Of a stretch of 60,900 bases of DNA, positions 1-21,463 are shown one piece after another. Numbering within the stretch: the first letter of the stretch is position 1; each line of letters starts with the position of its first letter. Below the pieces are notes generated by a model. The model saw only the letters and a program-made list of their open reading frames with translations. It ran no database searches and was not told the DNA's origin. Source of the stretch: Bacillales bacterium UBA6877 (GTDB lineage Bacteria > Bacillota_I > Bacilli_A > RFN20 > CAG-826); contig DKCJ01000020.1 of NCBI GenBank assembly GCA_002451465.1, positions 52,777 to 113,676 of the forward strand, given 5' to 3'. The translations under genes and the position numbers were made by a program.

Positions 1-2435
1 TTTTCATCACGTTCTTTTATTATGCTTTCTGAAACATTTGCATTAATTTTATCAATCAAATTAAAAGGCATATAAATATTATTTCCTTCAGGAACATAAT
101 AGTCTCTTGAAATATTTATATTTGGAACTTTTAAATTAATATTAGATTTTTTAAGTTCAATGATGTATTTTGATAATTTTTCATCATTTTTAGTTATTTG
201 AGAATTTAAAATTGCCGTATAAAATTCCATTGGATAATAAGATTTTAAATATAAAGTTTGGGCGGTAATCATTGCATAAGCTACAGCATGCGATTTATTA
301 AAACCATATTCAGCAAATTTAGAAATGGTCTCAAAAACCTTATTAATTACATCAACTTTATGACCTTTTTTAAGAGCGCCAGAAATAAATTTTGCTTTCA
401 TAGCTTCCATTTTCGTCTTATCTTTTTTAGAACAAGCTTTCCTTAAATTATCAGCTTCAGCAAAAGTAAATCCAGCAAAATCTTGCGATGCAATCATAAT
501 TTGTTCTTGATAAATAAAGATACCATAAGTATCTTTTAAAGAATGGATTAAAGAATTATCGATATATGTAACTTCTTCTTTTCCATTTAAGCGATTTGCA
601 AAAACACCTAAATTAACACGTGGACCAGGTCTATCAAGTGAAATAAATGCCGTTAATTCACTAAAATTTCTAGGCTTAAAATAATTTAATGCGCTACTTG
701 CTGCGCTTGTATCCATTTGGAATACACCCATCAAAAGTTCTTTTTGAATCGGTTCATAAATTTTTGGATTATCTAAATCAATATTTTTTAAGTCTACATC
801 AATATTTTTATAAAACTTAATTAATTTTAAAGTATTATCAATTGTAGTAAGGTTTATTAAACCTAAAATATCCATTTTTAAAAAACCTTCTTCTTCAAGG
901 TAGTCTTTTTCGTATTGAGTAATATAACCAATATTATCTTTAAATAATGGTATTGAATTTATTAATGGGGTGTTATTTAAAATAACACCAGCCGCATGCA
1001 TACCTCTTTGTCTTGCTAATCCTTCAATTAAGTGTGCTCGCTTAACAAGTGTTTTTATTTTTTCATCATCATCAACGATATTTTTAAACTTTGAGTTGTT
1101 TTTATAAGTTTCTACAAGATTTACTTGTTTATTGTTTTTATCAATTATTAATTTTGTTAATTCAGAAACATCCTTATCTTCAAAACTATAAATTCTTCCA
1201 ATATCTCTTAAAGCTTGTTTTGCAAGAATTGTTTGAATAGTAGCAATATTTGCAACTCTATCTAAACCATATTTTTCTTTTAAATAGATAACAACAAGGT
1301 CACGTTTAGTGTCACCAAAATCAATATCGATATCAGGCATTGATTGTCGGCTAGGATTTAAAAATCTCTCAAATAATAAATTATATTTTATTGGATCTAC
1401 TTCCGTTATATTTAAGACATAAGATATTAAACAACCAGCAGCCGAACCTCTTCCAGGTCCAACAGGAATATTGTGTGTTTTAGCATAATTTACATAATCT
1501 TGAACAATCAAAAAATAATCACAATAACCCATTTGTTTAATAATTTTAAATTCATAATTTAATCTATTTCGATAGATTTTTTGGGTATTTAAATTTATTT
1601 TTCGATTTATTAAACCTTCTTTTATTTTTTTAATTAATTCATTTTCTGAATTATTTTCACCATCGTCAATAGGATAATGTAACATTTCTCCACGTTTTTT
1701 ATTTAATTCAAAATTTATTTTATTAACAATTTCATTAATAGAATCAAGTTCAGCAGTAGTGTAAAATTTTTTAAGTTCTTCATCAGTTTTTAAATGATAA
1801 AAACTTTTATTTGGCTTATAGCTGATATCTAATTTTGTATTGTTTTTTATGGCATTTAAAATATCTAAAACAATTGCATCATCTTTTTTAATGTATTTCG
1901 TTAAAGAGTGGGCAATTGTTTTATAACAAAACTTATTTGCAAAATTACGTATTAGTTCATAGTGAGAAATTAAAGATTCATCAAAAAACTCTAAACCAAT
2001 ATAAAAATCATCAGGATTAATAGTACGAGCAATACTTGAAACTTTATTTTTAAATTCATCATTAATATTATTAAATAATGGAGAACTAGAACATAAAATT
2101 ACAACTAAACCATCAATATTTTCTTTAAAATTTAATAAAGTTAATTCATTAGAGCTAAAAAGTAATGATAGTTTTGAAAGATTCTTATAACCATCTTCGT
2201 TTTTTATAAGGAAGGTAAATAGTACATTTTCTATAATTAAATCCATTCCAAAAATAGGCTTTATATTATATTTTTTTGAAAGTTTATCAAATTCTGGAAG
2301 GCCCATCAAAATATTTTTATCAGTTAAAGCAATACATTTAACATTATTTTTATAAACAATTGATAAAAACTTTTCGAGTAAAATTCCACTTTCTAAAAAT
2401 GAATATTGACTATATAAATGGAGTGGAAAATACAT
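1..2435 (-). CDS. dnaE: DNA polymerase III alpha subunit DnaE, first ~811 codons. The ORF runs off the left window edge, so it has no stop here and is absent from the supplied track.
   Basis: Manual minus-strand translation from ATG 2435..2433 gives MYFPLHLYSQYSFLESGILLEKF (PHP-domain start). The same frame is still open at 59..1 (LIDKINANVSESIIKERDE). The DnaE motif NIPVGPGRGSAAGCLISYV lies at about 1400..1475. The start overlaps the nrnA stop (TAATG). Confidence 0.9.
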   Translation of the reverse strand, partial: MYFPLHLYSQYSFLESGILLEKFLSIVYKNNVKCIALTDKNILMGLPEFDKLSKKYNIKPIFGMDLIIENVLFTFLIKNEDGYKNLSKLSLLFSSNELTLLNFKENIDGLVVILCSSSPLFNNINDEFKNKVSSIARTINPDDFYIGLEFFDESLISHYELIRNFANKFCYKTIAHSLTKYIKKDDAIVLDILNAIKNNTKLDISYKPNKSFYHLKTDEELKKFYTTAELDSINEIVNKINFELNKKRGEMLHYPIDDGENNSENELIKKIKEGLINRKINLNTQKIYRNRLNYEFKIIKQMGYCDYFLIVQDYVNYAKTHNIPVGPGRGSAAGCLISYVLNITEVDPIKYNLLFERFLNPSRQSMPDIDIDFGDTKRDLVVIYLKEKYGLDRVANIATIQTILAKQALRDIGRIYSFEDKDVSELTKLIIDKNNKQVNLVETYKNNSKFKNIVDDDEKIKTLVKRAHLIEGLARQRGMHAAGVILNNTPLINSIPLFKDNIGYITQYEKDYLEEEGFLKMDILGLINLTTIDNTLKLIKFYKNIDVDLKNIDLDNPKIYEPIQKELLMGVFQMDTSAASSALNYFKPRNFSELTAFISLDRPGPRVNLGVFANRLNGKEEVTYIDNSLIHSLKDTYGIFIYQEQIMIASQDFAGFTFAEADNLRKACSKKDKTKMEAMKAKFISGALKKGHKVDVINKVFETISKFAEYGFNKSHAVAYAMITAQTLYLKSYYPMEFYTAILNSQITKNDEKLSKYIIELKKSNINLKVPNINISRDYYVPEGNNIYMPFNLIDKINANVSESIIKERDE

Positions 2436-3436
2436 TATTTTTCTCCTTTAATAACGACCTCATCCAATCTTTTTAATAATTTTGGTAATTCAGTTAAATC
2501 TTTAATTTGTGCACCGGCAGCTTGATTATGTCCGCCACCTTTAAACTCTTTAGCAACTTGATTAACTCGATAATTTCGACTTCTTAAAGATACTCTAAAA
2601 CATGGTTCAGTAATATCTTCCGTAACTGAAATCCATATATTAATACCTTTATAATTTGAAAAGAAATTCACATATTCTTTTCCTTGATCACAAGTTATTC
2701 CAAGATTTGTTAAGTCTTTTTGTGTTAAAACATAGTAACAAACGCCATGTTTAGTAATTTTAAAATTTGAAATTACAAATTTTATGAAATCAAGAGATTT
2801 CATATCTTTTGTATACATATCTTCATAAAGTTTTGTAAGATTAAAACCTTTATTTAATAACTCTGCACCAATTTCAAGCGTAAAAGGAGAAGTGGAACCA
2901 AAAAGAAATCTTCCATTATCACCAACCATTCCAATATAAAGATAATGTGCAGCTTTTTTACTTAATGTATAACCTTTTTTTTCAAAATATAAGAGCATTG
3001 CCGCGACTATTTCAGAACATGATGATTTCTCAGTTTGAACAAGACAATCATTGTAAACAACTTCTTCACATGGATGGTGATCAATTTTAAAAATATAATC
3101 AGCTTTTTCAAATCGTGGATCAGCAATACGTTTTTTATCACCAACATCGCATATTATTGCTAAAAAAGGTTCACAAGAAATATAATTATCACTAAGTTTA
3201 TTAACTTCAGGAAATAAATTTCCTGAAAAAACCACATGATTATCACCAGCAGTTCTAATTTCTTTATCCTTAAAATTTTCTTTCAACCAAGTTTCAAGAC
3301 CAAATTGGCAACCTAAAGCATCAAAATCAGGCATAATATGTCTAAAAATGATAATTCTTTTATATTTTTTAATCTTTTTTAAAATTTCATTGTAAAACTT
3401 TTTATTCTTTTTAAACTCTTCTTTTATAAAATTCAT
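2435..3436 (-). CDS. nrnA: DHH/DHHA1 phosphoesterase, NrnA-type oligoribonuclease/pAp phosphatase
   Basis: Motifs HIMPDFDALGC, KIDHHP and the DHHA1 signature GGGHNQAAGA. Adjacent to dnaE as in Bacillus. Confidence 0.8.
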   Translation of the reverse strand: MNFIKEEFKKNKKFYNEILKKIKKYKRIIIFRHIMPDFDALGCQFGLETWLKENFKDKEIRTAGDNHVVFSGNLFPEVNKLSDNYISCEPFLAIICDVGDKKRIADPRFEKADYIFKIDHHPCEEVVYNDCLVQTEKSSCSEIVAAMLLYFEKKGYTLSKKAAHYLYIGMVGDNGRFLFGSTSPFTLEIGAELLNKGFNLTKLYEDMYTKDMKSLDFIKFVISNFKITKHGVCYYVLTQKDLTNLGITCDQGKEYVNFFSNYKGINIWISVTEDITEPCFRVSLRSRNYRVNQVAKEFKGGGHNQAAGAQIKDLTELPKLLKRLDEVVIKGEK

Positions 3437-3446
3437 CTTTGATTCC

Positions 3447-4643
3447 TTATTTTAAAAGCATATTATAAGCATCACGAGCAATCATTACTTCTTCATTTGT
3501 TGGAATAACAGCAACTTTTATCTTTGAATCTTCATTTGATAACAAGCCTTCTTTTCCGCCAAATAATGACTTATTTTTTTCATCACTATAGGTAATACCA
3601 AGAGCTTCTTTTACATTATCTAATACAAGTTTACGATAGAAGGCGCTATTTTCACCAATACCAGCAGAGAAAATGATTAAATCACATCCTCCGAGTCTAA
3701 CATAATATTGACCAATGAAATCAGCTACTCTTCTTGCCCATAAAGCATTTGTTAATTTAGCTTGCTTACTTCCTTTATCAGCAGCACTTTCTAAGTCTCT
3801 TGTATCATCACTAATTCCAGAAACACCCTTTAATCCTGATTTTTTACTAAATTCTTGGAATACAGTTTCAACGTCTTTTCCAGTTTGTTTACAAACATAA
3901 TAGAAAACGGATGGATCAAGATCACCTGTTCTTGTTCCCATCATAATTCCACCAGTTGGAGTTAAGCCCATTGAAGTTGCAAGACTTTTACCATCTTTAA
4001 CGGCAGTAATAGAGGCGCCACTTCCTAAATGACAAATAATAATTCTTGAATGAATATCGTTATTTACGTATTTAAGACCTTTTTCGCTTAAATATTTATG
4101 GCTTGTACCATGTGCACCATAACGATAAATTAAATATTTCTCGGTATATTCGTAAGGAATAGGGAATGTTTTATCAACTTCATCCATAGTCTGATGGAAA
4201 GCAGTATCAAATGAACAAATTCCTGGAGTATTTGGTAAAACTTTTTGGAATGCTCTAATTCCAGTCAATTCAGCCGCATTATGATTAGGTGATAGTGGAA
4301 TTAAAGATTCAATTTTTGCTAAGACTTCATCACTAATTATTGCTGATGAAGAAAAATAAGGACCACCTTGAACTATACGATGTCCAGTTGCCTTAATTTC
4401 ATCATATGATTTAATAATTCCATCCTTAATTAAAGCATCCATAACTAATTTAACAGCTACTGAATGATCTTTAACTGGTAAAACTTCCTTATTAACTTTT
4501 GAATTAAATTTAACGGTAAAAATACCATCATCATGACCAATTCTTTCGACAATACCAGAACAAATAACTTTTTCTTCGGGCATTTCATATAATTTAAATT
4601 TTAAACTGCTGCTACCAGCATTGACTGCCATTACTTTTGACAT
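3447..4643 (-). CDS. ackA: acetate kinase
   Basis: N-terminus VMAVNAGSSSLKFKLY, plus HRIVQGG, GAHGTSH and EEVMIARD, which are typical AckA motifs across the full length. Confidence 0.95.
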   Translation of the reverse strand: MSKVMAVNAGSSSLKFKLYEMPEEKVICSGIVERIGHDDGIFTVKFNSKVNKEVLPVKDHSVAVKLVMDALIKDGIIKSYDEIKATGHRIVQGGPYFSSSAIISDEVLAKIESLIPLSPNHNAAELTGIRAFQKVLPNTPGICSFDTAFHQTMDEVDKTFPIPYEYTEKYLIYRYGAHGTSHKYLSEKGLKYVNNDIHSRIIICHLGSGASITAVKDGKSLATSMGLTPTGGIMMGTRTGDLDPSVFYYVCKQTGKDVETVFQEFSKKSGLKGVSGISDDTRDLESAADKGSKQAKLTNALWARRVADFIGQYYVRLGGCDLIIFSAGIGENSAFYRKLVLDNVKEALGITYSDEKNKSLFGGKEGLLSNEDSKIKVAVIPTNEEVMIARDAYNMLLK

Positions 4644-4746
4644 AAATAATCTCCTTAAAGTTCTTCTTTATTATATTATCTAAAAAGGCTATTTCATACT
4701 AAAAACTAATGAAAATTATTATAAATTATAAAGAAATGTAAGAATA

Positions 4747-6198
4747 CTATCTAATTCTTTTAGTTAATTTATATCTAGGATTAAAATAAATATATTTTGC
4801 TAAACCAATAAATAATGTAATAGTTGACGCAATCCACGCACCAATATCAGCACCCATTAAAACAAGATAAGATAAATCACTTGTTGGATTAGTTGGATTA
4901 ACAAGACTTGGTAAAAATAAAGAAATTAAAACTCTTGAAACAAGCTCAAAACAGCCAGCTAAGAACGGAAATAGAGGTTTTTCAATTCCTTGAAGAACAT
5001 TTCTTCCAAGACATAACCAACCCAAAAAGAAATACAAAGGAAGATTAACGTACATATAATACGTACCATATTTAATAGTATTTGCGTTTATATTATTTGG
5101 ATTTAAGAAAATATATAAAAACGCACCTTTAATACATAATAAGAATCCTAAAATACTAGTCATAACGCAAACAACCGTTGTAATTAATATACCTCTTGTA
5201 CATCCTTTTCTCACTCTTTCATATTCTCCAGCACCTAAATTTTGTCCAGAAAATGAAAGCATTGCCGTTCCAATACCATTTGGAATACATATAAATGATG
5301 TAATTAATTTATTTGCAGCACCATAACCTAGTTGTGCTGGTTGAGTAGGATCATTATTTGCTAAATCAAATTTTACGACAGCACCTTGCATAATAATAAT
5401 TCCAATTGCTAAAACACTAAATTGTAAGCCAAGAGGAATACCATTTTTAAGGTGTTGGAAAGCATATTTCCAATCAATCTTTAAATCACTAAATTTTATT
5501 CTTAAATAATCATATTTTTTATATGAATAAATAAAACATAAAACTCCTGATATAAATTGCGAAATAATTGTGGCAAATGCAGCTCCAAAAACACCCCAAT
5601 CAAAAGTAACAATAAATAATAAATCAAGGAAAATGTTTAAAATAACACTTAAAAATAAAAATACTAAAGGAGTAATTGAGTCGCCAACTGCACGTAATAC
5701 ACTACTAAATAAGTTAAAAAATAAAAGAGCAATTGTTCCTAAAAAATAAACAAAAATATATGTATAAGCATATTGATAAACGGAACTATCTTTTGTTATA
5801 TTTATTGACTCAAGCATGAAATCAATCGATAATATCGCAACAATTGTTAATATAACACCAATAATAAAAGTTAAAACAACTTGAATAGCATATGATTGTC
5901 TTATCTTATCTTTATCATAAGCACCAAATGCTTTGGCAGTAATAGCACTAAAACCAGCCGAACATCCAAATCCAAATTGTAAAATAATGAAAGTTAAACA
6001 ACTAACATCATTAATTCCAGCAATTTCATCTGGACCTAAATTTTGTCCTGCGATTGCCGCATCAGTAATTGTATAAATTTGTTGTAATAAAAGTGATAAT
6101 AAAATAGGAATACTGAATACAATAATACTTTCAGTAATATTTCCTTTAGTTAAATCAATAGGTTTAAAAATGTTTTTAATTCTCTCTAAAATACGCAT
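4747..6198 (-). CDS. MATE family efflux transporter
   Basis: A ~12-TM hydrophobic protein with a MATE-like N-terminus (IPILLSLLLQQIYTITDAAIAG). The track ORF begins at TTG 6216. The in-frame ATG at 6198 (MRILERIK) has an AAAGG SD-like sequence upstream and is preferred. Confidence 0.8.
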   Translation of the reverse strand: MRILERIKNIFKPIDLTKGNITESIIVFSIPILLSLLLQQIYTITDAAIAGQNLGPDEIAGINDVSCLTFIILQFGFGCSAGFSAITAKAFGAYDKDKIRQSYAIQVVLTFIIGVILTIVAILSIDFMLESINITKDSSVYQYAYTYIFVYFLGTIALLFFNLFSSVLRAVGDSITPLVFLFLSVILNIFLDLLFIVTFDWGVFGAAFATIISQFISGVLCFIYSYKKYDYLRIKFSDLKIDWKYAFQHLKNGIPLGLQFSVLAIGIIIMQGAVVKFDLANNDPTQPAQLGYGAANKLITSFICIPNGIGTAMLSFSGQNLGAGEYERVRKGCTRGILITTVVCVMTSILGFLLCIKGAFLYIFLNPNNINANTIKYGTYYMYVNLPLYFFLGWLCLGRNVLQGIEKPLFPFLAGCFELVSRVLISLFLPSLVNPTNPTSDLSYLVLMGADIGAWIASTITLFIGLAKYIYFNPRYKLTKRIR

Positions 6199-6302
6199 GA
6201 CCTTTATTCTAGTCAAAAAAATTAATGTTTCAAGAAAAATGAATTATATTTTTTTAAAAATAATATTTGGATTTTAAGCCTATTTACTAGATAATTATTT
6301 AT

Positions 6303-7796
6303 ATGAAAGAAAGCGGAATTCTTTTACATATATCTTCTTTACCAAATAAATATGGAATAGGATCAATTGGTAAAGGTGCTTATAAATTTGTTGATTGGCT
6401 AAAGGAATGCGGTTTTAGTAGATGGGAAATTTTACCTTTAAATCCAGCTGGACCTGCAAATTCTCCATACCAAACAAATAGTGCTTTTGGATTCAATATT
6501 TCATTTATTGATTTAGATTTATTGATTGATGAAGGATTACTAAAAAAAATAGATTTACGTGGTTTATTTTTTGGTAAAAACCCTGAATTTGTTGATTATA
6601 AGGCTATATGGAACACAAGAAAACAAATTTTATACAAAGCATATAAAAGATTTGATAAAACATCTCGTGAATTTAAAAATTTTAAAGAAGACCATGATTA
6701 TCAAGAATTTGCTTTATATATGACAATAAAAGACATTAATAATAATAAACCTTGGTATGATTGGTCTATAGAATATCGTATTTTTACTCCTTTAGTTAGG
6801 GACTATATTTTAAAAAAATATTATAAAAAATATGAATTTTATGTTTTTACACAATATATTTTTTTAAAGCAATGGAGAACCTTAAAAAAATACGCTAATA
6901 ATAAAGGGATCAAAATTGTTGGATGCGTTCCTTATTATTTATCATATGATAGTGTTGAATTTTATTTTCATCCAGATTTATTTTTGGTTGGAAAAAATAA
7001 CGCTTTAGAATACATTAGCGGTTATCCAAGTGATGCTTATAATAAAGTTGGGCAGCGTTGGGGAAATCCACTTTACGATTGGTCTTATATGAAAGCTAAT
7101 AATTATAAATGGTGGAATGAAAGAATAAGTAAAGCTCTTAAACTTTATGACTATGTAGTCCTTAATCATTTCCGAGGTTTTTATCAATTTTATGCTATGC
7201 CATTTTCCTTTATGGATAGTAGCAAAGGATTTTTTATGGAAGGTCCAAGACTCGATTTCTTTAAAGATAAAAAGAATTTACCACTTATAGCATCTGGTGT
7301 TGGTTTAAAAGACGAACACGTCGCACGTTTCATCAAAGAATGTGGTTATCCAGATATTAGAATGTTATTATTTGGCTTAAATAATATTCCTGAAAATATT
7401 CATAATCCAATTAACTACAACGAAAAAACAATTGCGTATTCTACAAATCACGACTCCATGCCATTAAAAGGCTTCATTAAAGACAATTTTAATGAAAATT
7501 TATTTAATCAAATAGAAACATTAGCAAATAATTTTGATATTCAATTTGAAAAAGAAAAAATTTCTATTAAATATCTTTTTGATGTCTTAATAAAGATATT
7601 ATATAAATCTAATGCAGGTTGCATTATGCTACAACTTCAAGATATTTTAATGCAAGATAAAGGTTCTAGAATGAATACCCCTGGTGTTGTTAATAAAACA
7701 AACTGGTGTTATAGGATAACTTCAATTGACCTTGAAGATGATTATACAATTAAAAAATTTAAAGAATTAAATAAAAAATACGAACGATCAATCTAA
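6303..7796 (+). CDS. GH77 4-alpha-glucanotransferase (MalQ) family paralogue with degenerate catalytic motifs
   Basis: Alignable to the second MalQ over its full length (GILLHISSLPNKYGIGS, SPYQ, GQRWGNPLY, NHFRGF, STNHDS). The catalytic positions read LNHFRGF and IASGVG instead of IDHFRGF and AEDLG. Confidence 0.85.
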   Translation: MKESGILLHISSLPNKYGIGSIGKGAYKFVDWLKECGFSRWEILPLNPAGPANSPYQTNSAFGFNISFIDLDLLIDEGLLKKIDLRGLFFGKNPEFVDYKAIWNTRKQILYKAYKRFDKTSREFKNFKEDHDYQEFALYMTIKDINNNKPWYDWSIEYRIFTPLVRDYILKKYYKKYEFYVFTQYIFLKQWRTLKKYANNKGIKIVGCVPYYLSYDSVEFYFHPDLFLVGKNNALEYISGYPSDAYNKVGQRWGNPLYDWSYMKANNYKWWNERISKALKLYDYVVLNHFRGFYQFYAMPFSFMDSSKGFFMEGPRLDFFKDKKNLPLIASGVGLKDEHVARFIKECGYPDIRMLLFGLNNIPENIHNPINYNEKTIAYSTNHDSMPLKGFIKDNFNENLFNQIETLANNFDIQFEKEKISIKYLFDVLIKILYKSNAGCIMLQLQDILMQDKGSRMNTPGVVNKTNWCYRITSIDLEDDYTIKKFKELNKKYERSI

Positions 7797-9083
7797 TTTA
7801 TCAAGATATAATGGATAATTGAATTTTATCGTATGATTTCGAATTATAATTTTTTCATTGTTTAAAAGGTTAATATAATTCCCATCTTCTAGTAGATTTG
7901 AATTAATAGTAATTGGGTTCTCAGTTAAATTAAATAAACCAATTATTGGTTGTTGATTTTTATAAATATTTTTGAAAGCTAGAACTTTTTCATGTACATC
8001 TAAACAATCGCTTTGGATTAACTCTTCATTTATAGGATCTTTTTTTAGTTCAACTAACTTTTTTATAAAATTAAAATAGTTTAAATCAACAACATTTGTT
8101 GAAATTAAATCTTTTTCAAATAAATTAGGTAGTTTGTATTCTTTCGTTTCTTGACCACCATAAATAAAGCCACTTCCTTTAATAAAAAAGATAAAGGCAT
8201 TTAAGTTCATTCTTAATGGATCATAATTTGTAAAAGACGCTATACGAGCAATATCATGATTTTCTAAAGTCCCAATTTTTAAAGCATTAGTTGGAAGACT
8301 GATATTCTCATAAAGAAACGATTTTTTATAAAAATCTAAATTAATATCACCTTTTTTAAGTAAAAAATCACGTAATAAATAGTAATTAGAATATCTATAA
8401 AGCAAATCAAAGCCATCTTTAAAAAGCTCAGAATCTGAGCAACAATTTCCCCCTTTTCCACGAACATAATTTGCAAATTCAGGTTCAACAGCTTCAGCAA
8501 GAAGAATAATATTTTTATTTATTTTTCTTAATTTTGGAAATGCATATTTATAAAATTCATTAGTTAAAAAACTTGCAACATCAAAACGATAACCATCAAT
8601 ACCAAGATTCAAATAATATTCCAATACATTTGTAACATAGTTAATTAATGGTAGATTATTAGTATAGTTTAAGTCATAAACATCGGACCAATCACCAAAA
8701 TGATTCGCAAAATCCCCATTTTCATCATGATAATAAAATTCTGGATGCTCTTTTAATAAATTGTTATCACGAGAAGTGTGATTAAAAACGACATCCATAA
8801 TTACTAGCATGTCTCTATTATGAATTTCTTTAATTAAATCTTTAAAATCATCTAAGGTTCCAAGTTCAGGATTTATTTTATAGTAATCTTTAATTGCATA
8901 TGGAGAGCCTAAAGTACCTTTTCTTCCTAATTTTCCAATTTCATTAATTGGAAGAAGTTGTATTACTTTTACGCCAATGCTTTTTATATAGTCTAACTTA
9001 TTTATTAAAGCCTTAAATGTTCCTTCTTTGGTATAATTTCTTACATAAATTTGATAAAAAGTATATGTTTTAAGTTTGTTCAT
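7788..9083 (-). CDS. cytoplasmic GH13 alpha-amylase family enzyme (no signal peptide)
   Basis: GH13 regions I-IV are present: DVVFNHTS, GYRFDVASF, LLAEAVEP, LENHD. The track start GTG 9095 is replaced by ATG 9083 (MNKLKTY), which follows AAAGGTGAT. The 3' end overlaps the convergent GH77 gene by 9 nt, and its stop is TGA. Confidence 0.85.
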   Translation of the reverse strand: MNKLKTYTFYQIYVRNYTKEGTFKALINKLDYIKSIGVKVIQLLPINEIGKLGRKGTLGSPYAIKDYYKINPELGTLDDFKDLIKEIHNRDMLVIMDVVFNHTSRDNNLLKEHPEFYYHDENGDFANHFGDWSDVYDLNYTNNLPLINYVTNVLEYYLNLGIDGYRFDVASFLTNEFYKYAFPKLRKINKNIILLAEAVEPEFANYVRGKGGNCCSDSELFKDGFDLLYRYSNYYLLRDFLLKKGDINLDFYKKSFLYENISLPTNALKIGTLENHDIARIASFTNYDPLRMNLNAFIFFIKGSGFIYGGQETKEYKLPNLFEKDLISTNVVDLNYFNFIKKLVELKKDPINEELIQSDCLDVHEKVLAFKNIYKNQQPIIGLFNLTENPITINSNLLEDGNYINLLNNEKIIIRNHTIKFNYPLYLDKLD

Positions 9084-9391
9084 AATTTTAATCACCTTTT
9101 TTAGTTCTTATTAATTTTACTGAAAAATAAAAAATAAGCATTAAGAAATAATTTTTTTATTAAAAAAAGTTAAAAAATCAAATAATATTTGACATATTTT
9201 TTAAATAAATATGATTGTATCGTTATAAATTGATTTAAAAAGATTTATTATAAATATAATGGGCAATGACTATTTAATTTTAAAATTATGTAATTTTTTG
9301 ATAATTTATATTGTAAAAATATTTATTTTTTAAAATTATCGCGACACTATCAAACTAATTATATTTTTTATTTTTTTATATATGATTTTAA

Positions 9392-9445: not shown

Positions 9446-10951
9446 ATGGTTAGAACTGCAGGGATTTTATTTCACATAAGCTCATTACCTTCAAAATATG
9501 GTATTGGGACATTAGGAAGAGAAGCTTATAACTTCATTGATTTTATGTGCAAAGCCAAATTACATATTTGGCAAATTTTGCCATTAACAGTTACAAGTTA
9601 TGGCGATTCCCCATATCAATCCCCATCTAGTATAGCTCTTAATCCTTATTTTATAGATTTAGAATTTTTAATAGAAGATGGACTTTTAACTAAAGAAGAA
9701 TGTGATTCCATTAATTGGGGAGATAATAAATTGCGTGTAAACTACGATTTATTATTTAAAAATAGAAATAATCTTTTATTTAAAGCTTTTGAAAGATTTA
9801 ATAAAAACGATGATAAATATCAAAGTTTCTTAAATAAAAAAGAATATTTTGATTATGCATTATTTATGACACTTAAAGAACTGCATAATTATAAACCTTG
9901 GAGTGAGTGGGAAGAAAAGTCACGTATATATAAAATAGGATTATCAAATGAAATAGCTGATAAATATAAAGAAAAAATTGAGTTTTATCAATGGACTCAA
10001 TATATATTTTTAAAACAATTTAACAATCTAAAAGAATATGCCCATAAACATGATGTCAAATTAATGGGTGACATGCCAATTTATGTTGCATATGATTCTC
10101 TTGAAGTTTGGAAATATCCAGAACTTTTCCAACTTGATAAAAATCATTACCCAACAAGAGTTGCTGGATGTCCGCCAGATTGTTTTAGTGAAGATGGTCA
10201 ACTTTGGGGTAATCCTTTATATAATTATGATTATATGAAAAAAAATAATTATGAATGGTGGAATCAAAGAATTTTATACAATTTAAAATTGTATGATATA
10301 ATAAGGATAGATCATTTTAGAGGTTTCAGTGGTTATTATTCAATTCCGTTTGGCGATAAAACAGCAAGAAATGGTAAATGGGTAAAAGGACCAGGAGCTG
10401 AATTATTTAAAGACAAATTGAATTTACCAATTGTCGCTGAAGACTTAGGTATGATGGATGATGATTTTTATAAAATGATGGATGTTGTTAAATATCCTGG
10501 CATGAAAATTATAACTCAATGTTTTGACGATCCTAATACAAACAATATATGGAGACCATCAAATTACACCGAAAACTTCTTTTCGTATAGTGGAACTCAC
10601 GATAGTCAAACAACAAGACAATTCATTGATGAATTATCAAAAGAACGAAAAGCATTGATGGAATCCATATTAGATGATGAATGCAATCGTTTAAATGTTG
10701 AAAAACTCGAAAACAAAACAAATGAATTGATGACCTTAAAAATTTGTGAATTAAATTTTGCTAGTAAAGCAGAAGCTGCAATTACCCCACTTCAAGATTT
10801 CTTAACAATTGGAAAAGAAGGAAGAATGAATTTCCCATCAACACTTTCAACTAACAATTGGTCATGGAGAGTTGATAAAGATGAATTCACTAAAAAAGAA
10901 GATGAATTAATCAATAAAATTAATTCATGGGTTAATAAATACAAACGTTAG
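9446..10951 (+). CDS. malQ: 4-alpha-glucanotransferase (amylomaltase, GH77), catalytic motifs intact
   Basis: RIDHFRGF, PIVAEDLG and SGTHDS are all present. The track start TTG 9392 lies inside the promoter. ATG 9446 (MVRTAGILFHISSLPSKYGIGT) aligns with the N-terminus of the paralogue. Confidence 0.9.
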   Translation: MVRTAGILFHISSLPSKYGIGTLGREAYNFIDFMCKAKLHIWQILPLTVTSYGDSPYQSPSSIALNPYFIDLEFLIEDGLLTKEECDSINWGDNKLRVNYDLLFKNRNNLLFKAFERFNKNDDKYQSFLNKKEYFDYALFMTLKELHNYKPWSEWEEKSRIYKIGLSNEIADKYKEKIEFYQWTQYIFLKQFNNLKEYAHKHDVKLMGDMPIYVAYDSLEVWKYPELFQLDKNHYPTRVAGCPPDCFSEDGQLWGNPLYNYDYMKKNNYEWWNQRILYNLKLYDIIRIDHFRGFSGYYSIPFGDKTARNGKWVKGPGAELFKDKLNLPIVAEDLGMMDDDFYKMMDVVKYPGMKIITQCFDDPNTNNIWRPSNYTENFFSYSGTHDSQTTRQFIDELSKERKALMESILDDECNRLNVEKLENKTNELMTLKICELNFASKAEAAITPLQDFLTIGKEGRMNFPSTLSTNNWSWRVDKDEFTKKEDELINKINSWVNKYKR

Positions 10952-10993
10952 TTATAAACTCTAAAAAAGTTTTTATAAAAAGAAAGGAAAAAC

Positions 10994-12178
10994 ATGGAAA
11001 AAGTTAAGACTGTTACCAAAAAAGGTAGTGGAGCTAGTGAAGAGCTTCAATATAAGACTAATGAGTCTTCAAAAGTCAAAGAATCTTCGCGAAATGTTGA
11101 TGATGTTTTTGTATCTTTAAGACATATCGACAAAATTTATGATAATAATGTTCAAGCTGTTTTCGATTTCAATTTAGATATCAAAAAACATGAATTTATT
11201 GTCTTTGTCGGACCTTCTGGTTGTGGTAAATCAACCACATTACGAATGATTGCAGGTCTTGAAGATATTACAAAAGGTGAACTTTACATTGACCATGTTT
11301 ATTGTAACGATAAAACACCTAAAAATAGAGATATTGCAATGGTTTTCCAAAGCTATGCACTTTATCCACACATGTCAGTTTATGAAAATATGGCATTTGG
11401 TTTAAAAATTAGAAGAATGCCAAAATTTGAAATTGATAAACGTGTTCATGAAGCAGCAAGAATTCTTCAAATTGAACAATATCTTGATCGTAAGCCAAAA
11501 GCTTTGTCTGGAGGACAAAGACAAAGAGTTGCTCTTGGTAGAGCAATTGTAAGAAACGCAAAAGTATTCTTAATGGATGAACCATTAAGTAACCTTGATG
11601 CTAAACTTCGTGTTCAAATGAGAAGTGAAATTATTAAATTGCATGAAGCTCTTGGAGCTACAACAATTTATGTTACTCACGACCAAACAGAAGCTATGAC
11701 AATGGCAACAAGAATTGTTGTTATGAAATTAGGTAGAATTCAACAAATTGGTACGCCAATAGAAATCTATAATCATCCAGCAAATTTATTTGTTGCAGGC
11801 TTTATAGGTTCTCCAGCAATGAATTTCTTAAAAGTTAAATTTGATGCAATGAATGGCGTAGCTTTATTATCTGATGGACATAAAATTGAAATTCCAAAAG
11901 AATATTATAAGGATAAAAAACTTCCTGAAGATGTTATTCTTGGAATCCGTCCAGAAGATATTAGCTTAACAAGTGATAAAACAAAAGGTTATGAAATTAC
12001 TGTAAATGTCGCTGAATTATTAGGTAATGAATATTATGTACACTGTGATTTTGGTGGCACTGACTTAATTTCTAAAATACCAGCTGAAAAGTTAATTAAG
12101 ATTGGTGATAAGTTAAATGTTGAATTTAAATTAAATAAATTGCATTTCTTCGATCCAAAGACAGAAAATGCTATTTAA
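10994..12178 (+). CDS. sugar ABC transporter ATP-binding protein (MalK/MsmX/UgpC type) with a ~40-residue Lys/Ser/Glu-rich N-terminal extension
   Basis: Walker A GPSGCGKST, signature LSGGQRQR, Walker B FLMDEPLSNLD, H-loop VTHDQ and a C-terminal regulatory TOBE-like domain. Confidence 0.9.
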   Translation: MEKVKTVTKKGSGASEELQYKTNESSKVKESSRNVDDVFVSLRHIDKIYDNNVQAVFDFNLDIKKHEFIVFVGPSGCGKSTTLRMIAGLEDITKGELYIDHVYCNDKTPKNRDIAMVFQSYALYPHMSVYENMAFGLKIRRMPKFEIDKRVHEAARILQIEQYLDRKPKALSGGQRQRVALGRAIVRNAKVFLMDEPLSNLDAKLRVQMRSEIIKLHEALGATTIYVTHDQTEAMTMATRIVVMKLGRIQQIGTPIEIYNHPANLFVAGFIGSPAMNFLKVKFDAMNGVALLSDGHKIEIPKEYYKDKKLPEDVILGIRPEDISLTSDKTKGYEITVNVAELLGNEYYVHCDFGGTDLISKIPAEKLIKIGDKLNVEFKLNKLHFFDPKTENAI

Positions 12179-12281
12179 ATAGGTATTAATAATAAGTTTG
12201 TTTCTTATTATGAAATATATAAAACATATAGAAATATTCATAAAGAAATTTCTAATTAAAGCAAAGGAGGAATAAGTATAT

Positions 12282-12827
12282 ATGTTTAAAAAAACAAAAA
12301 CCTTATTTTGTGGATTAGCAGCTTTGTTATTATTGGCAGGCTGCGGCAATGATAATGATGATGATTTTAATCAAAATAAAGATCCACATGGTCAAGGATT
12401 TACAATGTATGTTGTTGGTTCTGATTGGAACAAATGGGACCCAGCCACAATTACTGAAGCTGAAGGTTGTGCATTCAAAAAGGATGAAGCAACAGGACTT
12501 TATACCATCGATTTAGTCATTACTGAAGAAATGGCTGCTGTCGAAAGACTCTGTGGTTTTAAATTTATTAGTTCAAATTCCTGGTCAAGTCAATATGGTA
12601 TGGAAGATTTAAATTGGGAAAAATGTGATGATACATTCAAAAACCAATATAAAGAAAAAAATCCTGATTTAAAGAAAACATATTGGCATGAAGGAACGAG
12701 CAATAGAAGCAATATTGAAGCTTATGTTGCTGGTACCTGGCATATCGAATATAACCCAGCAAACTTCACTAGTGAAGAAGTTGATGGCGTTCCATACACA
12801 AATAAATTTACAATTACTATTAAGTAG
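12282..12827 (+). CDS. small lipoprotein of unknown function, possible carbohydrate-binding beta-sandwich
   Basis: Lipobox LLAGC (Cys21) and a strong SD (AAAGGAGGA) upstream. The Trp/Tyr-rich mature part is YVVGSDWNKWDP...SSNSWSSQYG. It is the gene immediately upstream of the binding-protein gene. Confidence 0.6.
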   Translation: MFKKTKTLFCGLAALLLLAGCGNDNDDDFNQNKDPHGQGFTMYVVGSDWNKWDPATITEAEGCAFKKDEATGLYTIDLVITEEMAAVERLCGFKFISSNSWSSQYGMEDLNWEKCDDTFKNQYKEKNPDLKKTYWHEGTSNRSNIEAYVAGTWHIEYNPANFTSEEVDGVPYTNKFTITIK

Positions 12828-12848
12828 TTTAAAAGGAGTAAATATATT

Positions 12849-14129
12849 ATGAAAATTAAAAAAGGTTTATTATTAACAATTGCTGCTACTGCTGTTTTAG
12901 GTCTTGCTTCTTGTGGAGGAGAAGGTGGCCAAACTAGTTATGGTGATGTTTCAACCAAAATTGGTATTTGGGCAACTGCAGCTGAAGAAGCTGTCATTAA
13001 AGAAGTTGTTGATGCATATAATGCAAAACAAACTGATGAAAAGAGCAAATTCTCTTATGAATTTACTGCTGTTAGTGAAGCTGATTGTGGTACAACATTA
13101 GCAAAAGATCCTACTGTTAGTGGTGCTCCAGCATTATTTTTATGCGCTGATGATCATATTAATAACTTAGTTAGTCTTGATATCATTGCTGAATTAAAAG
13201 GTAAACGTGCTGAAACAATCAAAGCTAACAACTCTGAAGCCGCTGTTTTAGGTGTTACTAATAGTGATAAAATTTATGGATATCCTGTTACAAGTGATAA
13301 CGGATACTTCTTATGGTATAACAAGGCTGAATTAAGTGATGTTAGCTCCTTAGAAAGTATCTTAAAAACCGCTAAAGAAAAAGGAAAACATGTCTTAATG
13401 GATGTACCAAATGGTTGGTATGCTAACTCATTTATTATGTCTCCTGAAGCTTGTGGAACTACATCTCTTTCTTGGAAGAAAAATAGTGAAGGTAAAGTAG
13501 TTTATGATACAACTTGGGACAGTGATACAGGCGTCAAAGTTAGTGAATATATTGCTGGTTTATTAACTCCATATTACGCCGATGGCACATTACAAATTGG
13601 TAGTAATGATGTTATTTCTTCAGGATTCAATGATGGATCATTAATTGCTGCAGTTAGTGGTACATGGATGGAAAAAGATATCCAAAACGCAATTGGCGAT
13701 AATATGGCCGCTTCTAAACTTCCAGAATACCATATTGATGGCAAAGCTTATCAAATGGCTTCATTCACTGGTACAAAAGTTTATGGAATTAACAAAACAA
13801 GACCAGCTGCTGAACAAAAAGTCGCTGCTGCTCTTGCAGATCTTTTAACCACAAAAGAATCACAATTAACAAGATTCAAAGTTAGAGCTTCATTACCATG
13901 TAACTTAGAAGCACAAAAAGATGAATCATACACCAAAAAAGTTTCAGTTGGTGGTAAAGCCTTAAATGCACAAAACCAATTCGCTTGTGTTCAAGCTCAA
14001 ACTGCTGAAGATAGATATTGGGATATTGGTAAGGCTATTGGTCAAGCTTATATTGATAGTAATTTAGGTGGTAAAACTTGGACTCAATTCTTAAAAGATC
14101 AAATGGATACTTTAAGAAAATCCGCTTAA
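12849..14129 (+). CDS. maltodextrin/sugar ABC substrate-binding lipoprotein (MalE/MdxE-like)
   Basis: Lipobox LGLASC (Cys22). The length and composition fit a family-1 solute-binding protein. It sits between the ATPase and permease genes. SD AAAGGAG. Confidence 0.8.
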   Translation: MKIKKGLLLTIAATAVLGLASCGGEGGQTSYGDVSTKIGIWATAAEEAVIKEVVDAYNAKQTDEKSKFSYEFTAVSEADCGTTLAKDPTVSGAPALFLCADDHINNLVSLDIIAELKGKRAETIKANNSEAAVLGVTNSDKIYGYPVTSDNGYFLWYNKAELSDVSSLESILKTAKEKGKHVLMDVPNGWYANSFIMSPEACGTTSLSWKKNSEGKVVYDTTWDSDTGVKVSEYIAGLLTPYYADGTLQIGSNDVISSGFNDGSLIAAVSGTWMEKDIQNAIGDNMAASKLPEYHIDGKAYQMASFTGTKVYGINKTRPAAEQKVAAALADLLTTKESQLTRFKVRASLPCNLEAQKDESYTKKVSVGGKALNAQNQFACVQAQTAEDRYWDIGKAIGQAYIDSNLGGKTWTQFLKDQMDTLRKSA

Positions 14130-17010: not shown

Positions 17011-17011
17011 T

Positions 17012-17908
17012 ATGAAAAGCGCAAAATTAAGAAAAATTTTAGGAAATACTTTCATTTACCTCATTTTAATTGTTTTATCGATTATTTGGGTTGCACCAAT
17101 TGTTTGGCTCATCTTACAATCTTTTGGTGAAGGTGGTATTAGTGTTAGAGCACAACTTATTCCTAAGAATTTCACATTTGATAATTATTTATATTTATTC
17201 TCAAATTTCACTGGAAAAATAAATCCATTAGCAACCAATCATACTTTAGATGGGAAGTTCTTTACTTGGTTGCTTAATACTTTAATCGTAAGTATATTAA
17301 GTTGTGTTATTTCAACAATATTTGTTCTTGGAACAGCTTATGGTTTATCAAGATTTAGATTTAAAGGAAGAACTTTCTTAATGAAATTAAATCTTGTTAT
17401 TGGTATGTTCCCTGGCTTCTTAAGCATGATTATCTTATATTGGGTTATGAGAGATATTATCCATTTGCAAGGTAATTATATGTCACTTGTTATTATTTAT
17501 AGTGCTGGTGCAGGTGGCGGATATTATATTTCAAAAGGTTTCTTTGATACAATTTCAAAAAACATTGATGAAGCTGCAATGATTGATGGAGCTACTCGTA
17601 GTCAAATATTCTGGCAAATTATTTTGCCACTTGCAAAACCAATTATTGTCTATACAATATTAACTTCCTTTATGGCACCATGGGGTGAATACGTTACCTC
17701 ATCTTACATTATAGGTTTACAAAACATTGATAATTGGACTGTTGCAATTGGTCTTTATCAATTTACAGTTGGGCAAGATGTTGCAACTTCATACTATACA
17801 CAATTTGCAGCAGGTGCTGTTGTTATTGCCGTTCCAATTACATTATTATTTATGTTCTTACAAAAATATTATGTCAGTGGAGTTACTGGAGGAGCAGTTA
17901 AAGGTTAA
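17012..17908 (+). CDS. MalG-type ABC permease
   Basis: 6-TM permease with EAA loop DEAAMIDGATRSQIF. ATG 17012 (MKSAKLRK) follows the malF-like stop and GAGGAGG. The track start at 16937 overlaps the upstream gene. Confidence 0.85.
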   Translation: MKSAKLRKILGNTFIYLILIVLSIIWVAPIVWLILQSFGEGGISVRAQLIPKNFTFDNYLYLFSNFTGKINPLATNHTLDGKFFTWLLNTLIVSILSCVISTIFVLGTAYGLSRFRFKGRTFLMKLNLVIGMFPGFLSMIILYWVMRDIIHLQGNYMSLVIIYSAGAGGGYYISKGFFDTISKNIDEAAMIDGATRSQIFWQIILPLAKPIIVYTILTSFMAPWGEYVTSSYIIGLQNIDNWTVAIGLYQFTVGQDVATSYYTQFAAGAVVIAVPITLLFMFLQKYYVSGVTGGAVKG

Positions 17909-20490: not shown

Positions 20491-21462
20491 ATGAAACAAA
20501 TATTTTTAGCAAAAAAAGGAAAGAGAATTTTAGCAAGATTAATTGATCTTATAATTTTATTTTTTTCAACATTTTTGTTATTTTTTACATTAATTTATCC
20601 TAATACTTTTAATAAAGAACAATTTAATAAAAATAGCATTGAAATTATTGAATATTTTAAGGATAGTGAGTTATTTATAGTTGATGATAATGGAAATTAT
20701 AGCGCTAAATCAACTTTAGCTTCTTTTAAAAAAATAGATGATTTATATAATAATGACTTAAGTTTCAACAATAAAGAATATAAAAACGTTTCATTAACAA
20801 AATCTCTTTATGATTTTTATACTATTAAATATAAGGAGTATGGTGGCGTAGCAAATTTAAATAATTCACAATATGAAAATGAAGTACTTTTAATTAATAA
20901 TAGTGAATCAAATATAAAATCGTATGATTTTAATAGCCACACCCTTAAAATGATTGATTCTTCAAAAGAAGATGTTACATTAACGTATTTTCTTAATAAA
21001 TATGAAAGTACATGTAAAAATATGATAAAAAGTTCGAAAATAAACGATTTAACAAATGAAAATCAAAAATTAATATTTACTGCACTTTCTGGTTTATTAC
21101 CAACTTTATTTGTTTTTGCATTTATTTATGAATTTATTATTCCTTGTTTTGGTAAATATGGAGAAACTATCGGTAAACATATTTTTAAAATTGGTTTAGT
21201 AAATAAAGATGGATATGAAATTAAAAAATATCAATTATTTATAAGATTTTTAGCGTATTATTTTATGGATATTTTACTTAGTGCTATTACTTTTGGTGGA
21301 GTATTTATAATAACTTATACAATGATGCTTTTTACTAAAAAAAGAAGATGTATTCATGACTTTATTAGCGGAACAGTCGTAATAAATACTGTAAATTCAA
21401 TTATTTTTAAAAACAAAAATGAAGAATTATATTATTTAAATAAGATAAACAAGGTAATTTAA
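20491..21462 (+). CDS. RDD family membrane protein with a large central non-membrane domain
   Basis: N-terminal RDD-type motif KRILARLIDLIILFF, and a C-terminal TM pair around GETIGKHIFKIGLV. TATAAT at 20479..20484 ends 7 nt before the ATG and there is no SD, so the mRNA may be leaderless. Confidence 0.6.
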   Translation: MKQIFLAKKGKRILARLIDLIILFFSTFLLFFTLIYPNTFNKEQFNKNSIEIIEYFKDSELFIVDDNGNYSAKSTLASFKKIDDLYNNDLSFNNKEYKNVSLTKSLYDFYTIKYKEYGGVANLNNSQYENEVLLINNSESNIKSYDFNSHTLKMIDSSKEDVTLTYFLNKYESTCKNMIKSSKINDLTNENQKLIFTALSGLLPTLFVFAFIYEFIIPCFGKYGETIGKHIFKIGLVNKDGYEIKKYQLFIRFLAYYFMDILLSAITFGGVFIITYTMMLFTKKRRCIHDFISGTVVINTVNSIIFKNKNEELYYLNKINKVI

Positions 21463-21463
21463 A

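Follow-up and report, generated by a model that had tools for sequence, protein, structure and literature searches.

Positions 6303..7796 on the forward strand of the window (here the whole 60,900-nucleotide stretch of DNA that was analysed) carry an intact open reading frame of 497 codons for an N-type GH77 paralogue, a candidate pseudo-amylomaltase in which both the catalytic nucleophile and the acid/base are absent. N-type GH77 proteins are a small conserved family of low-GC gut Bacilli that are uncultured; a normal amylomaltase is usually encoded next to them, and they probably constitute the first recognised "pseudo-enzyme" branch of GH77. On balance, we favour the explanation that they are maintained, non-catalytic and putatively maltodextrin-binding pseudo-amylomaltases of cytoplasmic maltodextrin metabolism.

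Family Assignment and Fold

The preliminary description of this DNA had reported an uninterrupted frame of 497 codons in AT-rich sequence, and this was borne out, with a chance of approximately 5e-21 for such a stretch without a stop codon at the composition of the window (27.7% GC). The product matched Pfam PF02446 (GH77, clan GH-H) over residues 8-473 with an E-value of 1.3e-114 and 384 bits, covering profile positions 1-460 of 465, which represents a full-length family match. The AF2 model (pLDDT 91, pTM 0.91) had its best Foldseek match in the Streptococcus agalactiae amylomaltase 6m6t (TM 0.93), and the top 33 PDB hits were all GH77 proteins; at the level of the overall fold, the model and these matches indicate the (beta/alpha)8 barrel with subdomains B1-B3 and without a C domain that is expected of GH77. 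The rice ISA1-ISA2 heterocomplex (9j6x) was among the distant Foldseek hits. The product scored under every NCBIfam malQ cutoff (414.6 vs. 477 for NF011080 and 203 vs. 205.65 for TIGR00217). The canonical paralogue at 9446..10951 (forward strand), which has the complete Asp/Glu/Asp triad and a Pfam match to the family, scored above both cutoffs, and direct BLASTP showed 38% identity between the two GH77 paralogues of the window.

Loss of Catalytic Residues and Retention of Sugar Contacts

The catalytic columns were assigned from phmmer alignments against solved amylomaltases (6m6t, 1tz7, 1x1n, and 2x1i), from a MAFFT/HMM alignment anchored on Thermus brockianus 2x1i, in which the numbering corresponds exactly to D213, D293, E340, and D395, and from direct BLASTP between the two window paralogues. 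All alignments agree that Asn288 (codon AAT, 7164..7166, forward strand as for all codons below) occupies the nucleophile column at the end of beta4 (Thermus Asp293, S. agalactiae Asp295) and Ser331 the acid/base column at the end of beta5 (Thermus Glu340, S. agalactiae Glu342), while the codons TCT GGT at 7293..7298 encode Ser331-Gly332 in the columns of Glu340 and Asp341. Misalignment of the catalytic columns is ruled out by the agreement of four independent alignments obtained in these three ways. The replacement of the nucleophile Asp by Asn and of the acid/base Glu by Ser, which the preliminary description had proposed from the codons AAT and TCT (7293..7295, followed by Gly332), was found in every alignment. 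The motifs it had read are all present in the translations, namely YVVLNHFRGF, PLIASGVG, STNHDS, GCVPYYL, and DSVEFY in the 6303..7796 product and RIDHFRGF, VAEDLG, and GTHDS in the canonical paralogue. Its third catalytic motif indeed survives: Asp384 corresponds to the transition-state stabiliser after beta7 (Thermus Asp395, S. agalactiae Asp396) and is preceded by His383 in the His394 column, with Asn in place of Thr393 (Asn382-His383-Asp384, 7446..7454). In the S. agalactiae enzyme, Asp295 is covalently bound to the sugar and Glu342 and Asp396 are named as catalytic (PMC7990933), and the roles of the Asp and Glu rest on covalent intermediates of this enzyme and of its Arabidopsis counterpart (PMC7990933; PMC4705983).

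Besides the nucleophile and the acid/base, two further residues characteristic of amylomaltases (EC 2.4.1.25) are missing from the product: the invariant Arg291, two residues before the nucleophile, is replaced by Val286 (GTC, 7158..7160), and the invariant Asp213 of beta3 by Cys208 (TGC, 6924..6926; GDMP to GCVP). A clade-specific gain, Glu42 (GAA, 6426..6428), stands where canonical proteins have Gln45. Given Asn at the nucleophile, Ser at the acid/base, and the replacement of Arg291, Asp213, and Asp341, the double-displacement transferase reaction is not expected on sequence grounds.

The sugar-binding residues present a different picture when the 13 ligand-contact residues of the S. agalactiae acarbose complex are mapped onto the clade. 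The eight non-catalytic contacts that never vary in canonical proteins (Ser56, Asn460, Pro462, His395, Asp396, His296, Gly345, and Asp251) are also constant in the N-type clusters (all 59, or 58 at the Asp396 column), and among the canonical-invariant acarbose contacts the replacements are limited to Asp295 and Glu342. Residues that stack on the sugar or gate the cleft (Tyr/Phe59, Gln256, Trp258, and Phe251) are likewise retained. Judged from these alignments, the loss is selective, since the catalytic carboxylates are gone and the mapped contact residues of subsites -2, -1, and +1 are kept.

Composition and Conservation of the N-Type Clade

Including the window protein, the N-type proteins fall into 59 protein clusters that are monophyletic. 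The clade is cleanly bounded by scores of 720-806 bits vs. at most 573 bits for canonical proteins, and its clusters are only approximately 40% identical to each other. The nucleophile column holds Asn in 56 of the 59 clusters and Ser in three, and the acid/base column holds Ser (31), Asn (19), Ala (7), or Asp (2) and never Glu. The His394 column is kept in all 59 clusters and the Asp395 column in 58, and Asn occupies the Thr393 column in 56. Among other loci the Asn of the nucleophile column is encoded by both AAT and AAC, and a one-step reversion to Asp was not seen in the loci whose codons were read. A near-invariant Asn at this column is compatible with binding and with new chemistry alike.

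Several further positions distinguish the clade or parts of it. Position 45 is Glu in 58 of 59 N-type sequences vs. Gln in 62 of 63 canonical ones, and position 216, an Ile in canonical proteins, is His in 48 and Tyr in 11 of 60 sequences, with Tyr and not His in the window's own subclade. Lys prevails at position 291 in the clade as a whole (42 members), and the residues found there in the window's subclade are Val, Leu, Met, or Arg, the change of Arg291 to Val being peculiar to the window's species or subclade. The altered GCVPYYL motif had also been noted earlier; the change of Asp213 to Cys is real, but it does not stand as a trait of the clade, because Cys is confined to the window's species, with Asp, Glu, or Gln at position 213 in the remaining members. 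Columns conserved at 90% or more number 99 in the N-type vs. 104 in the canonical group, and the clade has a conserved patch of its own in subdomain B2 (Asp..LeuGlu.Arg, Thermus positions 158-164), a stretch that is variable among canonical sequences.

The conserved pocket gains (Glu45, His/Tyr216, Asn393, and Lys291) could mean a rebuilt rather than a dead active site. The clade would then be catalytic through other groups, for example Glu42 (Thermus position 45), His/Tyr216, or the retained Asp384, or would use another donor or leaving group (a sugar phosphate) or phosphate as nucleophile, and the loss of Asp293 and Glu340 would reflect a changed mechanism or substrate while catalysis persisted. 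We consider such a re-tooled enzyme, the main rival of the favoured explanation, unlikely, though worth weighing. The gains in or near the pocket and a constraint as high as that of true enzymes speak in its favour, as does the warning in the pseudoenzyme literature that catalytic residues can migrate (PMC10211241), but two of the three triad residues were lost together and the putative replacements are unstable within the clade, as the Tyr216 and the varied residue 291 of the window's subclade illustrate. The near fixation of Asn at the nucleophile column beside a variable acid/base column would suit new chemistry at the former, yet the tolerance of the latter for four different residues is unlike that of a catalytic position, and Glu45 and Lys291 may simply compensate for the charge that disappeared with Asp293. 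Moreover, we know of no clan GH-H enzyme that works without the beta4 Asp.

The clade is narrow, because an HMM search of a representative library at 50% identity returned a single N-type protein among the best 150 matches, 146 of which had Asp/Glu/Asp; a wide and deep N-type family is ruled out by the same result. A scan of a genome collection identified at least four N-type loci (L008-L011), the window's own species being absent among the matches listed.

Selection and Authenticity

Against the 73%-identical orthologue of locus L001, the N-type gene showed a dN/dS of approximately 0.14, compared with 0.10-0.23 for neighbouring genes, a value that is approximate because dS (approximately 1.4) is close to saturation. 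The frame was intact in all loci read, three other assemblies (L091-L093) carried the gene with 100% nucleotide identity, and 13 near-identical variants were found, of which one appears in 79 blocks of the collection. In 35 of 36 locus pairs the canonical neighbour was better conserved than the N-type protein (mean identity 61% vs. 50%), and the proposition that it is the more conserved of the two was rejected, as the N-type protein is ahead for the pair of the window and L001 only.

Each key substitution lies 1-2 nucleotides from the catalytic residue, as might be expected of a decaying pseudogene or of an assembly or sequencing artefact. This reading is already refuted, however, by the length of the open frame at such a low GC content, by the identical sequence in independent assemblies, by the occurrence of the same substitutions in 59 clusters of low mutual identity, and by the low dN/dS against L001; a strain-specific mutation or sequencing error is rejected on the identical DNA, the near-identical variants, and the agreement of the 59 clusters. 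The preliminary description had argued for a maintained protein and had proposed a search for the substitutions and for purifying selection in orthologues. Both were found, and the mapped contacts and the confident fold prediction further support maintenance. The protein corresponds to the sequence definition of a pseudoenzyme (PMC10211241), being a family homologue that lacks two of three triad residues and is maintained by selection, as judged from the 59 clusters, the low dN/dS, and the intact frames.

Genomic Context

The N-type gene of the window lies at a maltodextrin locus. A cytoplasmic alpha-amylase-like GH13 protein of 435 aa is encoded convergently at 7788..9095 (reverse strand), its gene overlapping the N-type gene by 9 bp at the 3' end; it was assigned by Pfam, retains the catalytic motifs (DVVFNH, GYRFDVA, LLAEA, and LENHD), and has its best PDB match in 3dhu (E-value 1.6e-69). 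The canonical GH77 gene is followed on the forward strand by genes for a MalK-type ATPase of a maltodextrin importer (10994..12178; Pfam ABC_tran, OB_MalK, and TOBE_2), a sugar ABC solute-binding protein (12849..14129; SBP_bac_8), two ABC permeases of 933 and 323 aa (14209..17908; BPD_transp_1), and, at the end of the locus, a second and larger GH13 protein of 560 aa (17908..19590; Alpha-amylase, E-value 1.8e-80), which is syntenic in L001, L003, L006, and L010. A promoter and terminator scan of the AT-rich window DNA found no excess of sites over shuffled controls.

Of 16 lineages, 12 have a canonical GH77 gene that adjoins the N-type gene or lies one gene away within a maltodextrin ABC-importer locus; commonly the two share a strand and open a single operon, with the canonical gene directly downstream in most lineages. 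The GH13 gene of approximately 435 aa adjoins the N-type gene in eight of 15 loci with readable flanks, the window included (L007 begins at the gene), and is usually divergent and upstream. The convergent GH13 had been put forward as a partner; its adjacency recurs, but the usual neighbour is the canonical GH77, and the convergent placement is confined to the window's own subclade.

This arrangement suggests an analogy with obligate non-catalytic subunits, whereby the N-type protein would act mainly through protein-protein contact, assembling with the canonical GH77 encoded nearby, or with the GH13 protein, into a hetero-oligomer, and would tune the stability, chain-length preference, or hydrolysis/transfer ratio of its partner, as ISA2 does for ISA1. 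The recurrent proximity to both genes, the clade-specific B2 patch, and the homodimer formed by the plant GH77 DPE1 (PMC4705983) are consistent with this role, which we nevertheless regard as improbable. A role strictly tied to the canonical GH77 is not universal, since four of the 16 lineages (L009, L088, L089, and L096) have no adjacent canonical gene: the N-type gene follows ecfA1A2T-truA in L009 and L088 and precedes an unknown protein of 1100-1300 aa in L089 and L096. In the window itself, the N-type and canonical genes are not co-transcribed because the convergent GH13 gene lies between them, and no evidence is known to us for a requirement of oligomerisation among small bacterial amylomaltases.

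Proposed Role and Implications

The favoured explanation, a non-catalytic maltodextrin binder, would begin with duplication of an amylomaltase gene in the ancestor of an uncultured low-GC gut Bacilli lineage and retention of the copy since then, usually as the first gene of a maltodextrin ABC-importer/MalQ operon. The product would be a cytoplasmic protein with a complete GH77 fold, whose cleft would still recognise alpha-1,4-glucan at subsites -2, -1, and +1 and which, with Asn and Ser in place of the nucleophile and the acid/base, would be unable to run the double displacement. Imported maltodextrins may then be bound without turnover, as in a natural form of the laboratory Asp-to-Asn substrate-trap mutants, and such binding would modulate what the canonical GH77, GH13, GT35 phosphorylase, or the transporter see.

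More tentatively, and as a minority expectation, N-type proteins may not be inert, representing either the first GH77 with relocated or rebuilt catalysis or the first bacterial pseudoenzyme subunit of alpha-glucan metabolism, acting with MalQ, GH13, or the importer. If so, the former would imply a new activity towards alpha-glucans or sugar phosphates, and the latter would give prokaryotes an equivalent of the plant proteins ISA2 and BAM9.

GH77, with its four recognised groups (PMC8465469), is treated as a one-activity family in which the catalytic triad is always conserved and only surrounding residues differ (PMC11046441), a rule that the selected N-type clade breaks; our literature search found no description of GH77 members without catalytic residues. 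N-type proteins carry the database label "4-alpha-glucanotransferase," so that metabolic reconstructions of these gut Bacilli include two amylomaltases although probably only one exists. The clade also supplies naturally occurring variants, similar to substrate traps, of an enzyme with industrial uses. In the starch metabolism of plants, paralogues without catalytic function hold a central place, and to our knowledge none has been described for alpha-glucan metabolism in bacteria; an active gene in tandem with a presumably inactive one offers a simple system for asking what such a protein does.

Comparison With Known Systems

Compared with canonical MalQ (Thermus aquaticus 1CWY/1ESW, Aquifex 1TZ7, and S. 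agalactiae 6M6T), the N-type protein has the same length, domain layout, and fold (TM 0.91-0.93), with an identity of 28-34% by Foldseek that is exceeded by that to the canonical paralogue of the window. Like canonical MalQ, it is a cytoplasmic protein of a maltodextrin-uptake locus that keeps the sugar contacts of the central subsites; unlike it, the window protein lacks the nucleophile Asp, the acid/base Glu, Arg291, Asp213, and Asp341 and falls below the malQ cutoffs.

Among natural deviations of the active site, the GH77 reviews that were compared name Borrelia GH77 alone, and it resembles the N-type clade both in the substitution of invariant active-site positions and in being a GH77 lineage of a reduced, AT-rich genome. 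It reportedly carries Lys instead of Arg two residues before the nucleophile, a change shared with the 42 N-type members that have Lys at this position. Borrelia GH77 keeps the catalytic triad and is active, whereas the N-type clade has lost two of the three triad residues.

The N-type clade also resembles the plant proteins ISA2 (the partner of ISA1), BAM4/BAM9, and LSF1, alpha-glucan paralogues that have lost catalysis, keep their fold under selection, and act with catalytic relatives. These occur in eukaryotes and come from other families (GH13_11, GH14, and phosphatases), and an N-type heteromer is putative; we know of no bacterial or GH77 counterpart of such non-catalytic starch paralogues.

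Laboratory mutants of clan GH-H enzymes with Asn for the nucleophile Asp or Gln for the acid/base Glu are substrate traps that bind intact oligosaccharide across the cleavage site. N-type proteins share the isosteric substitution of the nucleophile and the retention of the rest of the pocket, but they are natural, ancient, and selected and show the further pocket changes Glu45, His/Tyr216, and Asn393. Finally, the SLC3 heavy chains rBAT and 4F2hc are clan GH-H barrels of the GH13 fold that have lost their catalytic residues and serve a non-catalytic role; they are eukaryotic membrane-anchored transporter subunits in which the sugar pocket is not conserved, whereas the pocket of the N-type clade is conserved.

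Catalytic residues and family assignment

The open reading frame at 6303..7796 (+) comprises 497 uninterrupted codons in a window of 27.7% GC, where the probability of such a frame by chance is about 5e-21, and its product matches the Pfam family Glyco_hydro_77 end to end (E 1.3e-114). The AF2 model obtained with the clade alignment as input (pLDDT 91, pTM 0.91) retrieved exclusively GH77 enzymes as top Foldseek matches, the best being 6m6t (TM 0.93, rmsd 2.2 Å), and the protein is a GH77 member by fold and sequence. The motifs and codons given for it in the preliminary description were all found as quoted on re-reading the sequence, including AAT for Asn288, TCT for Ser331 and GGT for Gly332, as were RIDHFRGF, VAEDLG and GTHDS in the canonical paralogue at 9446..10951 (+). 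Columns were mapped using phmmer against five solved amylomaltases, a 123-sequence MAFFT alignment and BLASTP against the window's own paralogue (38% identity), and Thermus numbering was derived by aligning T. brockianus 2x1i with phmmer, which recovered D213, D293, E340 and D395 exactly. Alignment to the characterised amylomaltases bears out the proposed loss of both catalytic residues, placing Asn288 at the nucleophile (Asp293) and Ser331 at the acid/base (Glu340); Gly332, Cys208 and Val286 correspond to Asp341, Asp213 and Arg291, and His289 and His383-Asp384 to His294 and His394-Asp395. In the structure of S. agalactiae amylomaltase the equivalent nucleophile Asp295 carries a covalent sugar, with Glu342 acting as the acid/base and Asp396 stabilising the transition state (PMC7990933), and Asp373 of Arabidopsis DPE1 is likewise covalently bound to sugar (PMC4705983). 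Judged from its sequence, the protein lacks the catalytic features that define an amylomaltase. Moreover, it falls below the score cutoff of the curated NCBIfam malQ models, which accept its canonical neighbour, and despite this rejection the source annotations name members of its clade "4-alpha-glucanotransferase".

Extent and conservation of the clade

Among the best 120 database homologues, 59 clusters were without the Asp/Glu pair (hereafter N-type), and all of them formed one clade apart from the canonical sequences in a midpoint-rooted NJ tree, the window's own subclade being clusters P0001-P0008 (62-100% identity). The clade profile scored its 59 members at 720-806 bits and canonical GH77 at no more than 573 bits, leaving a gap between them, and the best 150 matches in a 50%-identity representative library included one N-type sequence and 146 with Asp/Glu/Asp; both results mark the clade as small, with sharp limits. 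Judging by the names of the sources and the titles of the genomes, its hosts are uncultured low-GC Bacilli of gut samples, given as Candidatus Onthovivens, "uncultured Mollicutes bacterium UMGS238" and uncultured Bacilli or Bacillales. Three GH77 representatives outside the clade (P0145, P0174 and P0276) have the triads Ser/Glu/Asn, Asn/Glu/Asp and Thr/Glu/Asp, respectively, and could be errors or inactive copies that arose sporadically.

The substitutions are shared by the relatives throughout the clade: the nucleophile column holds Asn in 56 and Ser in 3 of the 59 members, and the acid/base column Ser (31), Asn (19), Ala (7) or Asp (2), never Glu. The nucleophile-column Asn is encoded by AAT in some lineages and AAC in others, and Asp was never seen there, though one transition from the Asn codon. 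The 90% cluster of the window protein comprises 13 near-identical variants (one of them listed for 79 collection blocks), all with VLNHFRGF, IASGVG, GCVPYYL and STNHDS. The gene is also 100% identical at the nucleotide level in three other assemblies, whose flanking genes show few, mostly synonymous, differences, which rules out a strain-specific sequencing error.

Purifying selection, which the preliminary description had proposed to look for, is indicated by a dN/dS of about 0.14 against the 73%-identical orthologue of locus L001 (NG86), compared with 0.21 for the canonical GH77, 0.20 for GH13 and 0.10 for AckA, all values being approximate because dS, at about 1.4, is near saturation. Columns conserved in at least 90% of sequences number 99 in the N-type clade versus 104 in the canonical set, and on these alignments overall constraint is about equal. 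In 35 of 36 locus pairs, N-type identity was below that of the canonical neighbour (means 50% vs 61%), so the protein is clearly constrained, yet somewhat faster-evolving than the true enzyme. A pseudogene or artefact is excluded by the open frame, the identical assemblies, the clade-wide substitutions and this constraint, and the view of a maintained non-catalytic or mechanistically altered GH77, rather than a decaying pseudogene, is supported and extends to the whole clade.

Proposed glucan recognition and the altered active site

Thirteen acarbose-contact residues are listed for S. agalactiae amylomaltase (PMC7990933), and the eight non-catalytic contacts invariant in canonical enzymes (Ser56, Asn460, Pro462, His395, Asp396, His296, Gly345 and Asp251) are likewise invariant in 59/59 N-type members; the two catalytic carboxylates are the only invariant contacts to have changed. 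Residues described as platform and gate in DPE1 (Tyr136, Gln336, Trp338 and Phe331; PMC4705983) also have retained equivalents (Tyr/Phe59, Gln256, Trp258 and Phe/Tyr251). This pattern suggests that chemistry was removed and glucan recognition kept. A rebuilt active site, the main rival reading, which we regard as rather unlikely, would account for the conserved gains of Glu45 (replacing Gln in 58 members), His or Tyr at position 216 (replacing Ile, 48/60 and 11/60), Asn393 (replacing Thr in 56) and Lys291 (replacing Arg in 42), and apparent pseudoenzymes can have migrated catalytic residues (PMC10211241); however, these gains are unstable within the subclade of the window, the acid/base column varies between members and, from barrel geometry, Glu45 and Lys291 may merely offset the charge lost with Asp293. 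On balance, we consider it somewhat probable that the N-type protein is a maintained pseudo-amylomaltase, which would hold, but not turn over, alpha-1,4-glucan spanning the former cleavage site and would act inside cytoplasmic maltodextrin metabolism.

Genomic context

The N-type gene follows a MATE gene (4747..6216, -) and converges with a 435-aa GH13 gene with intact catalytic motifs (7788..9095, -); the two stop-proximal ends share 9 bp (7788..7796), and a search between them revealed no terminator-like hairpin. Over 4750..6198, comparison of the MATE gene with assemblies L091-L093 gives 10 synonymous and no non-synonymous differences. In all three assemblies the adjacent N-type gene is identical, and ackA matches fully in L091 but has one or two differing sites in L092 and in L093; such uneven divergence is suggestive of within-species recombination. 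Beyond the canonical GH77 lie genes for a 394-aa MalK (10994..12178, +), a 181-aa lipoprotein (12282..12827, +), a solute-binding protein (12849..14129, +), two permeases (14209..17908, +), a 560-aa GH13 that closes the maltodextrin locus (17908..19590, +) and, further on, two tandem RDD-family membrane proteins of about 322 aa each (20491..22432, +). Just downstream of this maltodextrin locus are genes for the glycogen branching enzyme GlgB (23386..25329, +) and a GT35 glucan phosphorylase (25350..27797, +); if GlgA and GlgC are absent, glycogen might form from imported maltodextrin via MalQ and GlgB.

The 181-aa protein has a lipoprotein-type N-terminus (LLLLAGCGND) and no Pfam or NCBIfam match, and shares 30% identity (E 7e-15) with a 162-aa protein, bearing Pfam X25_BaPul_like, that L094 encodes in the corresponding place. 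The 181-aa protein is probably a small starch-binding lipoprotein of the cell surface. The first permease (14209..17010, +) has 933 aa (862 aa in L094, about 500 aa in other lineages), with BPD_transp_1 confined to residues ~707-920 and no significant Pfam match in its N-terminal extension of about 600 aa; the second is listed from a TTG codon at 16937, within the 3' end of the first. Most other N-type lineages (L003, L005, L006, L007, L011 and L095) have as transporter ATPase an ABC_tran protein of about 845 aa (e.g., L005 17226..19772), about double the window's MalK, with faint OB_MalK and TOBE matches.

Across 16 distinct N-type lineages, window included, the canonical GH77 adjoins the N-type gene or sits one gene away in 12 (window, L001, L003, L005, L006, L007, L008, L010, L011, L090, L094 and L095), most commonly in the order divergent GH13, N-type GH77, canonical GH77, solute-binding protein, two permeases, an optional second GH13 and MalK. 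This tandem arrangement, together with a patch conserved specifically in the clade (Thermus positions 158-164), would agree with protein-protein action of the N-type protein, serving the canonical GH77 or the GH13 as a subunit, a reading that we find quite improbable and that the four remaining lineages, in which no canonical gene is adjacent, do not fit. Two of these (L009 and L088) carry the gene after ecfA1A2T-truA, beside pyk and pfk; in L089 and L096 it precedes a gene for a 1142-aa protein (10097..13525) or a 1294-aa protein (1811..5695), respectively, neither with a Pfam match.

Comparison with known systems

According to a review on alpha-glucan enzymes of prokaryotes, reported bacterial GH77 crystal structures are of EC 2.4.1.25 only, with the catalytic triad conserved and variation confined to surrounding residues (PMC11046441), and four GH77 groups are recognised, namely the Thermus type, borreliae, plant D-enzymes and the E. 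coli type (PMC8465469). Full-text literature searches found no description of GH77 members without catalytic residues. The feature at 6303..7796 is real, and glucan binding without turnover is the candidate biochemical role of its product. Non-catalytic paralogues of starch enzymes are known in plants, among them ISA2, BAM4 and BAM9, and by analogy these, together with laboratory Asp-to-Asn trap mutants, are the nearest counterparts of the N-type GH77.
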